This document shows, piece by piece, positions 4,566 to 21,894 of a stretch of 64,000 bases of DNA (position 1 is its first letter; each line of letters begins with the position of its first letter). The stretch is from assembly GCA_963717505.1 (NCBI GenBank), contig OY970342.1, positions 1,792,001 through 1,856,000 on the forward strand. The letters are read 5' to 3'. The notes beneath the pieces were generated by a model. That model was not told where the DNA came from. It made no database searches and worked only from the letters and a program-made list of their open reading frames with translations. The DNA comes from Candidatus Eiseniibacteriota bacterium. GTDB lineage: Bacteria; Eisenbacteria; RBG-16-71-46. The translations under genes were made by a program, and so were the position numbers.

Positions 4566-4943
4566 CTAGCGATCAAGCGCCTTTCGGCTCGCCGGCCGCC
4601 GGAACGCCGCCCGCACCGCGGCCACCAACTCGTCCGGCTCGACCGGAGTGAGGGCGAAGTAGGTCGGCCGCAGGCTCTGGAGCGCCCGTTGGTCTTCGAG
4701 CGACGCCGGATCGGAGATCAGGATCAGGGGCAGGTCGGGCGCCACCCGGCGCAACAGGTTCAGCACACCCATCTGGTGGTCGCCGTGACCGATCTGGCAG
4801 ATGACCGCACCCGGCCGCTCGCGCAACGCGTGCTCGATCAGGTCCTCGCTGTCCTTGCAATGGACGATGGTGTGCCCGTCGGCTTCCAGCCGGGCCACGG
4901 CCGGGTCATCGGGTGCCAGACAGTGTTCGCAAAGCAGCACCAT
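4566..4943 (-). CDS. Stand-alone atypical (pseudo-)receiver domain protein
   Basis: Receiver-like pattern 'RPGAVICQI..GVLNLLRRVAPDLPLILIS..YFALTPVEPDELVAAVRAA'. The phosphoacceptor Asp and conserved Lys are absent. GGGAAGG RBS upstream. Confidence 0.65.
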   Translation of the reverse strand: MVLLCEHCLAPDDPAVARLEADGHTIVHCKDSEDLIEHALRERPGAVICQIGHGDHQMGVLNLLRRVAPDLPLILISDPASLEDQRALQSLRPTYFALTPVEPDELVAAVRAAFRRPASRKALDR

Positions 4944-5083
4944 GGCCAAGAGACCTTCCCTCCGCGCCTCGACCGCGGCGGAGTGGCGATGAGGTTTCGC
5001 GCGGCAGCATGCCTTGGTGTACCGCCTACACCAGAGGTCGCGACCACGGGTGTGGCCCCGGCTGCCGCGCAAGCCAGTACGCA

Positions 5084-5098
5084 GCAACCGTCGTGCCG
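5084..5098 (-). promoter_or_regulatory. Sigma-54 -24/-12 promoter for the pseudo-receiver gene
   Basis: Minus strand reads CGGCACGACGGTTGC(T), matching TGGCACG-N4-TTGC with GG-N10-GC spacing. Confidence 0.7.
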
Positions 5099-5215
5099 AG
5101 GAGTCCGGGCCTTCCGCGAGACCGCAAACCGATGCGGGATCTCGCCGAAACGTCGCGGAGCCGTGGCGGGAGGGCGGCGCTACCTGACAGGCCGTGCCTC
5201 GAGGCTGCCTCGATG

Positions 5216-6603
5216 TCAGGAGGGGCTCGAAACCTCGGCCTCGCCACCGTCCTGGGGCTCGAGCTCCTTGAGGCGCCGATAGAGGTTGCGCTCGCTGATG
5301 CCCAGGATGGCCGCGGCGTTGTGCCGGTGGCCCTTGCACTCGTCGAGCACGCGCCGGATGTAGCGGCGCTCGACCTCTTCGAGCGTCGGCAGACGGCCGG
5401 AGTCCTCGTCCTGGGCGAACGAGGGAATGGCACGCACGCCCATCGGCAGGTGCTCGGGCTCGGATCTCCGATTCGTCGCACAGGATGAGCGCCCGTTCGA
5501 TCACGTTCTCCAGCTCACGGACGTTCCCCGGCCAGGAGTAGCGGCGCAGGACGCCCTGGGCCTCCTCCGAGACGTGCGCGTTGCGCTCGAGGCGCGATCG
5601 AGGAGTTGCGGATGAAGTGCTCGACCAGCACCGGGATGTCGTCGCGCCGCTCGCGCAGCGGCGGGATGTGGATCGAGAACACGTTGAGGCGGTAGTAGAG
5701 ATCCTCGCGGAACTGACCCTCCTTCATCATGGTCTCGAGCGCCCGGTTGGTGGCGGCGATGATGCGCACGTTGACCTTGATGTCGGCGGTGCCGCCGACG
5801 CGCCGGAACACGCCGGTCTCGATGCACGCGCAGCAGCTTGACCTGGAGCTGGCGGCGTCAGCTCGCCGATCTCGTCGAGGAAGATGGTGCCGCGATCGGC
5901 GACCTCGAACAGCCCGTGCTTGAGGCGGATCGCCCCGGTGTAGGCGCCCTTCTCGTGGCCGAACAGCTCGCTCTGCAGCAGGTTCTCGTGGAGCGAGGCG
6001 CAGTCGACCACGACGAACGGCTGCCGGCTGCGCCGGCTCTGGCGATGAACCGCGCGCGCGATCAGCTCCTTGCCGACGCCGCTCTCGCCGCGAATCAGCA
6101 CGGTCGAGTCGGTCTCGGCGACCCGCGCGACCATCTCGAGCAGTTCCTGGATCTGCGCGGCGCCGCCGATGAACCGGTCGATCGGCTGCAGGCGCTGGAC
6201 TTCGTGTTCGAGCGCCGAGTGGCTGCGCAGCAGGTTCTGGCTCCTGCACCGCCTTCTCGAGCACCGCCTCCAGCTCGGCCAGCTTGCACGGCTTGGTCAG
6301 GAAGTCGAGCGCGCCGAGCTTCATCGCCCGAATCGCCTCTTCGATGGTCCCGTAGGCGGTGAGCATGATGACCCCGGTGCCCGGTGCGGCTTCCTTGATC
6401 TCGCCGAGCAGGTCGAGGCCGTTGCCGTCCGGCAGCCTCACGTCGAGCAGCACGAGATGGAATGCCTGGCCCGCGAGCAGCGGGCGCGCCTCGCCGAGAG
6501 TGCCGGCCTGGGTCACCCGGTAGCCCGAGCGCTCCAGCTCCTTGCTGATCAGCTTGCGGAACGATTCCTCGTCGTCGATCAACAGCAACGAAATCTCAGA
6601 CAC
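5216..6603 (-). CDS. NtrC-family sigma-54-dependent response regulator (REC-AAA+-HTH), split by several frameshifts
   Basis: REC: LLLIDDE, LVLLD, MLTAYG, FLTKP. AAA+: [71 protein letters not shown]. The pieces lie in different frames. Confidence 0.85.
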
Positions 6604-20006: not shown

Positions 20007-20410
20007 CCCGTCGCTACGGAATCCTGTTCGTGGTCATGGTGGGGATCGCGCTCGTGGCGATCGCGGTGAGCCGCCTGCCGCGCGCGAGCCGCTCGGTCGC
20101 CAACGCGGTCGAGGCCGCCGAACCGTTGGCGCTCGACGTGTTCCAGGATCGCGTCGTGACCACGCCGGCCGTGATCCCGGTGGGCTCGCGCGTCGAGTTG
20201 ACCGTGGTGAATCACACGATGGCGACGGCGCGAGTCGAGCTGGCGGGCTACGAGGATCGCGTGAGCCACCCGGGGCTCGGGCCTGACAGCACGTGGACGA
20301 CGGCGTTCGTGGCCGACCGTCCCGGCGAGCAATTCGCGTGGATCGTGAATGGCGAACCCCGCGGCCGGCTCGACGTGACCGGGTCGCACCTGGTGGAGGG
20401 GCACCGATGA
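20003..20410 (+). CDS. Membrane-anchored cupredoxin-like protein lacking Cys
   Basis: N-terminal TM segment. 'VIPVGSRVELTVVN..LGPDSTWTTAFVADRPGE' follows a cupredoxin strand pattern. ATGA overlaps on both sides. Confidence 0.6.
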   Translation: MTRRYGILFVVMVGIALVAIAVSRLPRASRSVANAVEAAEPLALDVFQDRVVTTPAVIPVGSRVELTVVNHTMATARVELAGYEDRVSHPGLGPDSTWTTAFVADRPGEQFAWIVNGEPRGRLDVTGSHLVEGHR

Positions 20411-21294
20411 GCGCGGGAGCCGAAGTCGTGCCGAGGGTCGAGGCCCAGGTCGCGCTCGCGGGTTCCGGACGCGTTCGCCGCATTGTGGTCATCGCGCGCG
20501 AGGAGTATCGCCGCGCGCTCGAGAGCCGCTGGCTGTTCGGCTCGGCGGCGTTGCTCGCGGTGCTCATTCTCGGGCTGTCGTTCTTCGGTCTCGGCCAGAG
20601 CCGCGAAGTCGGGTTCCAGGGCTTCGCGCGCGTGACGCTGAGCCTCATGAACCTGGTGCTGATCATCGTGCCGCTCGCCGGGCTCATGCTCGGGGTCGCG
20701 AGCATCACCGGCGCGAGCGGAACCTTGCCGTTGCTGCTGGCGCAGCCGGTCGGCCGCGGCGAGGTGTTCGTCGGCAAGTTCGTCGGGCTGGCGCTCGCCC
20801 TGACCGTTGCGCAGGCCGTCGGTTTTGGAGTCGGCGGCGCGGTGATCGCGGTTCAGGCCGGAATCGAGCAGGTGCCCGCCTTCGCGACACTGACCGTCCT
20901 GTCGTTCGTGCTCGGCTGGGTGACGACCGCGGCGGCGATGTTCCTGGCCGCGTGCTGGCCCGATCGCCTGAAAGCCACCTCGGCCGCACTCGCCCTGTGG
21001 CTGCTGATGGTCATCGCCTACGACCTCGCAGTACTCGGCGCGACCGCGTTGTTCCGCGGGATTCCACTTCAGTCGATTCTGCTGCCGGCGCTGCTGCTCA
21101 ATCCCGTGGACCTGGCGCGAGTGCTGACCATTCTCGCCACCGGATCGGGTGCACTGTTCGGGCCGACGTCGGCCGTGCTGGTGCGCTTCCTGGGCTCCAC
21201 CGGCGGAGTGGCGCTCGGGATCGGCGTCCTGGCCCTGCAGTTGGCGGTGCCGCTGGTGGCAGGCGCCTGGGTGTTCCGCCGCCGCGATTGGTAG
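20407..21294 (+). CDS. nosY: ABC permease NosY
   Basis: 'IAREEYRRALESRW', 'SLMNLVLIIVPL', 'LLLAQPVGRGEVFVGKF', 'LLNPVDLAR', 'FRRRDW'. Confidence 0.88.
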   Translation: MSAGAEVVPRVEAQVALAGSGRVRRIVVIAREEYRRALESRWLFGSAALLAVLILGLSFFGLGQSREVGFQGFARVTLSLMNLVLIIVPLAGLMLGVASITGASGTLPLLLAQPVGRGEVFVGKFVGLALALTVAQAVGFGVGGAVIAVQAGIEQVPAFATLTVLSFVLGWVTTAAAMFLAACWPDRLKATSAALALWLLMVIAYDLAVLGATALFRGIPLQSILLPALLLNPVDLARVLTILATGSGALFGPTSAVLVRFLGSTGGVALGIGVLALQLAVPLVAGAWVFRRRDW

Positions 21295-21373
21295 GAACAT
21301 GAAGTTGCCATAGAGTGGCGTGGTCGCCGGGGGCGATGACGCCGGGAGAATCGCGAGAGGACGAGGAGGAATC

Positions 21374-21894
21374 ATGTTCGGTCTTCCCCTGCACCCGTCG
21401 GTGGTTCACGTGCCCCTGGGCATTGCCTTGGTCCTGCCGTTGGTGGCGGTCCTCATGTTCCTCGGGATCCTCCGCGGCCTGCTGCCGGCGCGGTCCTGGT
21501 GGGTGATCCTCGTGTTGCAGGCGGTGATGCTGACCGCTGGATTCGTCGCGCAGTCGAGCGGCGAGAAGGACGAGGAGGTGGTCGAAGAGATCGTGCCGGA
21601 AGAGGCGATCCACGATCACGAGACCAAGGCCAAGCAATTCATTCTGACCATGGACCTCGCGGTGCTCCTGTCGATCGGGGCGCTGGCCACGGCGGCAGCC
21701 AAAGTCGGGAGGCTGGTGCTGATTCTCGCCACGCTCGCGACGTTCCTGACCGCGGGGATGGCCATGCGGACCGGCCACGCCGGCGGCGAGTGCTGGTGTA
21801 CGTGCACGGCGCGGCGACGGCGCACACCGACGAAGGCGTGCCCGCGGTGGATGAGCATGGCGAGACGCCGGAGGCGGAACCCGCGCGAGACTAG
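21374..21894 (+). CDS. DUF2231-like His-containing membrane protein (frameshift near 21790)
   Basis: 'LHPSVVHVPLG', 'IHDHE', 'TGHAGGE/LVYVHGA'. GAGGAGG RBS. Confidence 0.7.

Follow-up and report, generated by a model that had tools for sequence, protein, structure and literature searches.

Which regulator switches on the nitrous-oxide reductase (nos) operon of an uncultured member of Candidatus Eiseniibacteriota? The question is raised by a 64,000-nucleotide stretch of its genome (GenBank assembly GCA_963717505.1, contig OY970342.1, positions 1,792,001 to 1,856,000; hereafter the window), where a clade II nos operon lies near genes for a universal stress protein (usp), a small heat-shock protein (hsp20), a stand-alone pseudo-receiver, a PAS-domain histidine kinase and an NtrC-type activator of sigma-54 promoters. 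NosZ, the reductase, is the main biological sink of nitrous oxide (N2O). An original prediction read positions 4566 to 21894 of the window as a self-contained sigma-54 regulon that couples N2O respiration to hypoxia and stress genes. Our analysis suggests that a lineage-wide two-component system probably runs a dispersed sigma-54 regulon, into which clade II nos has been recruited here, and that nos is likely wired to the kinase, the NtrC-type activator and sigma-54. Sigma-54 control of nos remains a prediction from genomes of uncultured organisms, and its parts are of known kinds.

The four -24/-12 motifs named in the original prediction are all present at the proposed coordinates and strands (Table 1). 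They are intergenic and oriented to the pseudo-receiver, hsp20, usp and cytochrome c-nosZ genes. The sigma-54 core GG-N10-GC occurs in a TGGCAC-N5-TTGC context at all four sites, 83-149 bp ahead of the gene starts, and the pseudo-receiver and nos motifs, described earlier as almost identical, have 16 of 17 bases in common. A scoring matrix trained on 43 promoters of relatives, leaving out this genome and all nos heads, assigns the four sites 15.8-17.7 bits, and the conservation upstream of orthologues that was called for is borne out at the orthologous loci of relatives. Judged by their sequences, the four are real sigma-54 promoter motifs, conserved in relatives (Ca. Eisenbacteria by the labels of the homologues). 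Comparison of a genome scan with background gave a divided answer. The loose consensus with two mismatches, uninformative on its own in a genome of 68% GC, yielded 53 matches against 62 expected from shuffles, whereas a stricter pattern, which was shaped on these very sites, has 23 matches in 4.16 Mb, four of them inside 9.6 kb where about 0.05 would be expected. The genome contains rpoN (TIGR02395 above cut-off, split by a frameshift) and three HU/IHF genes. A scan for sigma-70 elements and terminators gave matches at chance level. Origin of the nos promoter from a duplicated pseudo-receiver promoter was considered and rejected, as the flanks are dissimilar by eye.

These promoters are accompanied by a second element. 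A de novo palindromic Gibbs search (widths 13 and 15) of the DNA upstream of 23 sigma-54 motifs, taken from the window and orthologous loci, recovered the palindrome CTG[ACT]C[AG]-N3-[TC]G[AGT]CAG at every one of the 23 promoters, between about -67 and -146 and frequently paired, 19-22 bp apart. Each of the four window promoters is located about 75-135 bp downstream of such a palindrome. We then applied a fixed pattern (palindrome, 80-125 bp, promoter) to 206 genomes of the phylum. It matched 68 of the 79 genomes with an orthologue of the NtrC-type activator against 10 of the 127 without, and a reversed control pattern matched in 6 of 206. Kin genomes are not independent, but the contrast still holds inside two families, f1 (50/59 NtrC-bearing genomes against 3/30 others) and f18 (16/18 against 1/23). 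Because palindrome and promoter co-occur with the NtrC orthologue, the local pair, a kinase with four cysteines in its PAS domain and the NtrC-type protein, is likely the activator of these promoters.

Intact orthologues of the activator were found in 78 of 205 other genomes. Where the source organism of a kinase or activator homologue is given, it is in most cases Ca. Eisenbacteria. The protein has the features of a group I NtrC: a receiver (REC) domain with acceptor Asp, an AAA+ domain with a GAFTGA-type loop and a helix-turn-helix (HTH). Its loop is the variant GAYTGA, which is known from DmpR-type activators. It scores below the curated NCBIfam cut-offs (AtoC, 453 against 714; NtrC, 433 against 559; NorR, 316 against 476), and by such cut-offs it is not within the named NtrC families (NtrC, AtoC, ZraR, NtrX, NorR).

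The clearest view of nos control comes from comparison of nos heads. The phylum is rich in clade II nosZ, with 73 of 206 genomes above the family cut-off. Among 40 relatives examined first, 21 have nosZ, and 20 loci were taken as a discovery set: 13 of a Crp-box type, four of the sigma-54 type seen in this genome, and three cut. Sigma-54 motifs sought within 1.2 kb of nosZ in relatives had at first seemed not to be conserved; this was dropped once a hemerythrin gene and the second nos architecture, which had caused them to be missed, were recognised. In the 13 Crp-box loci, the order hemerythrin-cytochrome c-nosZ stands behind one or two ATGAC-N4-GTCAT boxes with no sigma-54/enhancer pair, and a divergent Crp/Fnr gene is nearby in 12. 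Scored by matrices trained off the nos promoters, these heads reach 12.7-24.6 bits for the Crp box, at most 6.6 for sigma-54 and at most 4.7 for the enhancer. Five sigma-54-type heads (this genome, G000, with G006, G014, G016 and G024) reach 14.2-18.6 for sigma-54, 9.5-18.1 for the enhancer and at most 4.6 for the Crp box.

A held-out set was obtained from a phylum-wide search; 57 loci were fetched and 55 scanned, two being dropped for lack of upstream DNA. It comprises 38 Crp-box loci, two sigma-54 loci (G154, G158), one unclassified (G157), four cut, and ten with neither signal, whose NosZ is distant (43-59% identity). In total there are 51 Crp-box loci, mostly beside a divergent DNR-like Crp gene. 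None has an enhancer-promoter pair at its nos head, including the 30 in genomes that also have NtrC. All seven sigma-54-type genomes are without a Crp orthologue, and in each the gene for the kinase or for NtrC is no more than 17 kb away from nosZ; in G016, kinase gene and nos head stand immediately back to back. Among the nos loci compared, the two architectures are mutually exclusive.

The Crp proteins have no or one cysteine in 42 of 44 matches and are therefore DNR/NnrR-like rather than FNR-like. In this genome we found no Crp orthologue and no HTH_Crp_2 match above cut-off, and the nos head scores 0.4 bits for the Crp box. The original prediction had pointed to the lack of a TTGAT-N4-ATCAA box upstream of nos. 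None is indeed present in the window, with one site genome-wide, but this was the wrong box to seek; that of the lineage, ATGAC-N4-GTCAT, is likewise absent here.

The survey also turned up other features of nos loci in relatives. The Crp-type heads (L003:8897-10372 and about 50 further loci) outline an undescribed-looking Crp/Fnr regulon, in which a divergent cysteine-poor Crp and two ATGAC-N4-GTCAT boxes, in most cases separated by 96-100 bp, precede hemerythrin-cytochrome c-nosZ. In L035, L036 and L037, this Crp and its box stand before genes of other kinds, with no nosZ. Distant clade II nos clusters (L034:9485-16683 in G013; L194 in G086) adjoin a gene that looks like an Rrf2-family regulator, with a sigma-70-like promoter in G013; a third way of nos control is possible there. 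In L184 and L212 (G154 and G158), a paralogue of the nos cytochrome c heads the regulator operon, about 10-12 kb upstream of nosZ.

We next asked how far the regulon extends. Among 1230 gene heads of this genome, 69 have a sigma-54 site of at least 10 bits, and 14 of these also have an enhancer of at least 9 bits. Of these predicted targets, four fall within the window and the other 10 elsewhere in the genome, so the regulon is not self-contained as had been proposed. The same regulon is found in many relatives with nos outside it or without a nosZ match. Among the 10 are a second hsp20, a tryptophanase-like lyase, a YgaP-like membrane protein, a dihaem cytochrome c and an ABC1-kinase operon; for four of these kinds, relatives show matching promoter and enhancer signals. 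Relatives have further predicted targets, among them Rieske/cytochrome b/multihaem operons, an MtrB porin, Nuo51/molybdopterin dehydrogenase, YceI proteins and phosphoenolpyruvate-utilising enzymes. What stands of the proposed local circuit is its core: sigma-54 promoters, control by the neighbouring kinase and NtrC, and co-regulation of nos, usp, hsp20 and the pseudo-receiver. Membership of the whole span does not, since the acyl-CoA ligase, second cytochrome c, C1 peptidase, DUF2231 and kinase genes within it have no promoter/enhancer pair.

No other target of the regulon is as constant as the pseudo-receiver. In all 15 orthologues examined, the acceptor column lacks an Asp; this absence, together with the position of the gene right after the activator and under its predicted control, suggests a possible feedback role. 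A Rieske/cytochrome b/multihaem operon under the same promoter type lies directly 3' of the pseudo-receiver gene in four relatives (L018:5588-8411, L023, L024, L050). Two sites elsewhere in this genome are also of note. At G000:C1:1776458-1776605 (L047), a promoter and enhancer pair that ranks among the strongest of the genome is followed by a small interval without a called gene, beyond which a GNAT gene runs in the opposite direction; the pair possibly drives a small RNA or a small open reading frame. At G000:C1:2177622-2182914 (L043), an enhancer pair and a weak sigma-54-like site precede a molybdopterin/4Fe-4S/NrfD operon, a candidate member of the regulon.

The sigma-54-type genomes do not group together by their NosZ. 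In a tree of 22 proteins, a single clade of the five discovery genomes of this type was rejected (approximately unbiased test, p 4e-7). A tree of 63 proteins, built by a quick method and leaving out G013, the second copy of G118, G204, proteins below 380 aa and nine distant NosZ, has six changes of type, at least five of them forced by well-supported branches, with Crp type on the deeper branches. Both nos types occur inside one genus. The scatter of the seven genomes indicates repeated takeover, and sigma-54 has probably taken over nos on five or six occasions. Gene orders at these loci can be arranged in a plausible series toward sigma-54 wiring: usp, crp, hemerythrin, nos in G156, the order expected of a precursor; usp-promoter-hemerythrin-nos in G014; usp-promoter-nos in G154 and G158; usp and nos in one operon in G006; and usp divergent from nos in this genome. 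We infer that crp was lost repeatedly and nos captured by the neighbouring sigma-54 island. Transfer of the whole locus could mimic part of the tree pattern.

A number of observations weigh against this account, and several feed the alternatives taken up below. The matrix seeds were sites picked by earlier matrices, making the training partly circular. Contigs from an RNA run were not used: one of 338 nt is identical to usp, the rest belong to other organisms, and nothing usable covers nos. Absence of Crp rests on genomes 74-96% complete, and three Crp-box loci (G131, G139, G166; genomes 71-89% complete) are also without a Crp match. One Crp-type locus, G175, has a 13.7-bit sigma-54-like site beside its boxes, with no enhancer. 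The history rests on a single-gene NosZ tree with one long outgroup; an RpoB search for a species tree, covering the sigma-54-type genomes other than G154 and G158, gave no match in G006, G014, G016 and G024. Some predicted targets, such as the tryptophanase-like lyase and secreted FlgD-tailed proteins, are not obviously connected with oxygen. Fold searches and structure prediction returned generic PAS and kinase matches only and no Fe-S (iron-sulfur) PAS structure, and the cysteine spacing of the kinase fits neither NreB nor OrpR.

The kinase nevertheless has a distinctive PAS domain. The four cysteines (codons near 7562, 7544, 7508 and 7499) are kept in 49, 48, 49 and 49 of 50 homologues while neighbouring positions vary, and the motif C-x5-C-x(8-24)-C-x2-C is found in 47 of the 50. 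No membrane segment is evident in the kinase alignment. An Atlas search returned unnamed PAS clusters. A profile search of genome contigs with the kinase alignment, which picks up generic kinase patterns, gave one true orthologue in 80 loci, and a kinase search in 40 genomes missed orthologues found by the NtrC search. Given the targets of the regulon and the regulator that was replaced, our best guess, held by a modest lean, is that the PAS domain is an Fe-S redox or oxygen sensor. The hypoxia signal and the DosR-like character of the response, both part of the original prediction, are likewise conjectural. A second PAS-containing kinase adjoins the kinase/NtrC genes in L015, L030, L184 and L212, as a hybrid with a receiver in L015, possibly providing a second input.

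The alternative that survives best keeps the wiring and changes the signal. The Cys4 PAS domain would bind zinc or sense sulfide, nitric oxide (NO) or thiol stress, nos would follow loosely, and the regulon would respond to stress in general or to energy limitation. Zinc can be bound by a set of four cysteines that ends in CxxC, the three-cysteine NreB PAS senses sulfide, OrpR senses redox potential and not oxygen, and hsp20, usp, rhodanese, OsmC, YceI and the tryptophanase-like lyase are all among the targets. However, many targets are electron-transfer genes of anaerobic type, the sigma-54 system has taken the place of a DNR-like regulator in the control of a copper enzyme that is described as sensitive to oxygen, and NmpR, the nearest functional analogue, is hypoxia-induced and also controls a usp. 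On balance, we consider another signal somewhat unlikely, though worth keeping in mind.

A different activator at the nos promoter is harder to sustain. The genome has about 27 other or split matches to sigma-54 activators, and proximity alone therefore does not identify the one in charge. Moreover, the enhancer lying between usp and nos (9.5 bits) is the weakest among seven sigma-54-type nos enhancers, such that nos could depend on sigma-54 but be driven by another activator, the palindrome serving usp only or being a relic. Yet the other six sigma-54-type nos heads have enhancers of 12.7-18.2 bits at -109 to -136, and the site here, at -132 with a half site (read directly from the sequence) 21 bp on, has the usual geometry, which makes this option unlikely.

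The regulator genes themselves pose a further problem. The kinase and the activator announced in the original prediction are both there, broken by seven and five single-base insertions, respectively. These 12 frameshifts in 2.6 kb, denser than elsewhere, raise the prospect that both are true pseudogenes, with orphaned promoters and nos silent or poorly expressed; nosD and nosF have one shift each. All 14 shifts relative to intact orthologues are +1, and the alignments reveal no deletions and no in-frame stops in these genes. In a comparison set, shifts occur in 11 of 124 other orthologue pairs, and 16 of those 18 shifts are +1. The uniformity of the shifts here and elsewhere, together with the split rpoN, is read as systematic assembly error, and promoters and enhancers are intact at 14 sites. 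The frameshifts in kinase and activator are thus probably assembly errors, and real decay of the pair is improbable. Other patches of apparent +1 shifts are located at G000:C1:2748000-2757000, 558000-559000, 3627000-3629000 and 3762000-3764000, suggesting local hot spots of assembly error. Least credible of all is the original picture, in which a self-contained local circuit serves to tie N2O respiration to a DosR-like set: four of the 14 predicted targets and the regulator genes do lie within 10 kb, and the regulator is linked to nos in all seven sigma-54-type genomes, but ten targets lie elsewhere, the signals of four kinds among them recur in relatives, and the regulator is present in 78 other genomes with its sites at only 6 of the relatives' nos heads examined.

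The dispersed, lineage-wide regulon may be pictured as follows. The soluble kinase would sense a cytoplasmic redox or oxygen cue via a metal cofactor, for which an Fe-S cluster bound by the four cysteines of the PAS domain is the likeliest candidate, and would phosphorylate the NtrC-type activator. The latter would bind one or two palindromes, often 19-22 bp apart and 70-170 bp upstream of the -24 element, and then open the sigma-54 promoters of the pseudo-receiver, usp, hsp20, genes elsewhere and, in this genome, cytochrome c-nosZBDFY. Ancestrally, nos would have been controlled by a divergent, cysteine-poor Crp/Fnr regulator through ATGAC-N4-GTCAT boxes, with a hemerythrin gene at the locus. 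Where nos adjoined the sigma-54 island, crp would have been lost and nos placed under an enhancer-bearing sigma-54 promoter.

Table 1. Genes, promoter motifs and enhancers of the window (positions within the 64,000-nucleotide stretch).
Feature	Position	Strand	Remarks
Pseudo-receiver (stand-alone REC fold without phospho-acceptor Asp)	4566-4943	-	weak Response_reg match
Sigma-54 -24/-12 motif, pseudo-receiver gene	5084-5098	-	CGGCACGACGGTTGC; 16.3 bits; position kept in relatives
Enhancer, pseudo-receiver promoter	5184-5219	.	full site 5205-5219 (13.6 bits), half site 5184-5198
NtrC-type sigma-54 activator	5216-6603	-	REC-AAA+-HTH, GAYTGA loop; 5 apparent +1 frameshifts
Soluble PAS-HisKA-HATPase kinase	6596-7784	-	PAS C-x5-C-x(8-24)-C-x2-C; 7 apparent +1 frameshifts
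Enhancer, hsp20	7833-7879	.	7865-7879 strong (17.3 bits), 7833-7847 weaker (9.2 bits)
Sigma-54 -24/-12 motif, hsp20	7976-7990	+	TGGCACGGCGCATGC; 15.8 bits
hsp20 small heat-shock protein	8098-8538	+	PF00011
Cytochrome c (second)	8688-9278	-	PF00034; no sigma-54/enhancer pair of its own
ADP-forming acyl-CoA ligase	9369-11579	-	no sigma-54/enhancer pair of its own
Papain-like (C1) peptidase-domain gene, 685 aa	11900-13957	+	weak PF00112; outside regulon
Universal stress protein (usp)	13968-14408	-	PF00582
Sigma-54 -24/-12 motif, usp	14490-14504	-	TGGCACAGGCATTGC; 17.7 bits
Enhancer common to divergent usp and nos promoters	14567-14602	.	imperfect 14567-14581 (9.5 bits); half site 14588-14602, 21 bp on
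Sigma-54 -24/-12 motif, nos operon (cytochrome c-nosZ)	14699-14713	+	CGGCACGCCGGTTGC; 16.4 bits
Monohaem cytochrome c, head of nos operon here	14782-15297	+	PF00034
Clade II (Sec-dependent) nitrous-oxide reductase NosZ	15294-17210	+	TIGR04246 852 bits, cut-off 625
Membrane protein, nosB by position	17266-17916	+	no family match
nosD	17918-19232	+	PF05048; one +1 frameshift
nosF ABC ATPase	19229-20006	+	one +1 frameshift
Conserved 135-aa gene between nosF and nosY	20003-20410	+	no Pfam/NCBIfam match
nosY ABC permease	20407-21294	+	PF12679
DUF2231 gene	21374-21910	+	no promoter pair

In the operon, a cytochrome c gene stands first and nosD, nosF and nosY lie downstream. NosZ is below the cut-off of the TAT (twin-arginine translocation) model (461 against 625), and a cytochrome c precedes nosZ in 19 of the 20 relatives' loci, the remaining locus being cut. 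The membrane-protein gene after nosZ we take to be nosB by its position. The 135-aa gene, which has a conserved GSHLxxxHR motif at its end, is present in all 13 relatives' loci that reach that point. Several relatives have an extra gene before it, presumably NosL-like by its CxxC motif, which this genome does not have; no NosL was found in this genome (86.7% complete). Nor were NirK, NirS or NrfA found in it, and the organism therefore looks like a pure N2O consumer. The DUF2231 gene is probably not part of the system, since it has no promoter pair and was not seen after nosY in the 13 relatives listed. The acyl-CoA ligase gene directly follows usp in two relatives (L028, L032); here the C1 peptidase gene, with a probable hydrolase-type second domain, is inserted between them on the opposite strand. 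This gene has no match in the nos loci of 20 relatives.

If both this wiring and an Fe-S oxygen signal hold, N2O reduction would be switched on by oxygen loss alone, with no NO signal, and directly sigma-54-driven nos operons would exist in non-denitrifying N2O sinks, together with a new class of Fe-S oxygen sensor. We put forward, tentatively and as a possibility short of an even chance, that Eisenbacteria have repeatedly moved clade II nos from nitrogen-oxide-sensing Crp/Fnr control to an undescribed Fe-S(Cys4)-PAS kinase/sigma-54 stand-in for FNR. The predicted system is a clear example of a regulon rewired repeatedly between classes of sigma factor. Since the binding sites of both regulators are predicted, and matched sister genomes place nos under one or the other, the signal for clade II N2O reduction becomes testable in vitro or in a surrogate host.

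RpoN is reportedly needed only indirectly for denitrification in P. stutzeri (Haertig and Zumft, 1998). We found no account of a directly sigma-54-driven nos operon, or of nos regulation in Eisenbacteria, in the open-access article texts that the search covered. The main text of PMC12316311 does not mention nosZ, nitrous or denitrif, and its supplements could list nos genes. In clade I proteobacteria, nos is controlled via DNR/NNR/NnrR, FnrP and FixK2, according to PMC1274295, PMC5582078 and PMC8139620. No -24/-12 element was found at nosR of B. diazoefficiens. The majority of the relatives resemble the DNR/NNR type, with a Crp/Fnr protein lacking the FNR cysteine cluster and a palindromic box before the nos head. 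However, their box is ATGAC-N4-GTCAT, not TTGAT-N4-ATCAA, and their clade II nos is led by hemerythrin and cytochrome c, whereas the present genome has neither the regulator nor the box.

In mycobacteria, the DosR regulon co-induces small heat-shock and universal stress proteins under a regulator of NarL type, which works with haem-GAF kinases and is not known to involve sigma-54. The likeness is one of output alone: at the present locus, regulation is assigned to a sigma-54 activator paired with a PAS kinase, and by this local regulator the system is not a DosR regulon. The partner of NreB, NreC, is also a NarL-type and not a sigma-54 regulator. NreB itself is similarly a soluble PAS histidine kinase that senses by a cysteine-ligated Fe-S cluster, CX2CX11CX2C [4Fe-4S] in S. 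carnosus and CX2CX11C [2Fe-2S] in B. licheniformis (PMC13478379). The present PAS domain differs in cysteine spacing and lacks the CX2CX11C(X2C) motif, and the NreB kinase is of HisKA_3 type.

In overall design, the system is similar to NmpRSTU of Myxococcus xanthus, which, as described in PMC11841059, combines an NtrC-type activator, tandem palindromic enhancers and sigma-54 promoters with a dispersed hypoxia-induced regulon that includes a universal stress protein, hemerythrin and respiratory genes. There, sensing falls to a haem protoglobin kinase, one member of a relay of four proteins; the NmpR site is GCGCA-N5-TGCGC with 14-15 bp spacing, and the targets are cbb3 oxidase and hemN with no nos (PMC11841059). 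Here a single Cys4-PAS kinase and the palindrome CTG[ACT]C[AG]-N3-[TC]G[AGT]CAG are found, with neither the protoglobin sensor nor the NmpS/NmpT relay. The sensory side has a parallel in OrpR of Desulfovibrio vulgaris, which activates sigma-54 promoters via a cysteine-bearing PAS domain with a redox-sensitive [4Fe-4S] cluster; according to PMC8359166, this one-component protein (PAS-AAA-HTH) has three cysteines (C52, C61, C65), recognises the site GGGCGYRTTTTGCGCCC and controls two operons. In the present system, the PAS domain is not fused to the activator and the C-x8-C-x3-C pattern is absent; instead, a separate kinase with four cysteines is predicted to serve a wide regulon.

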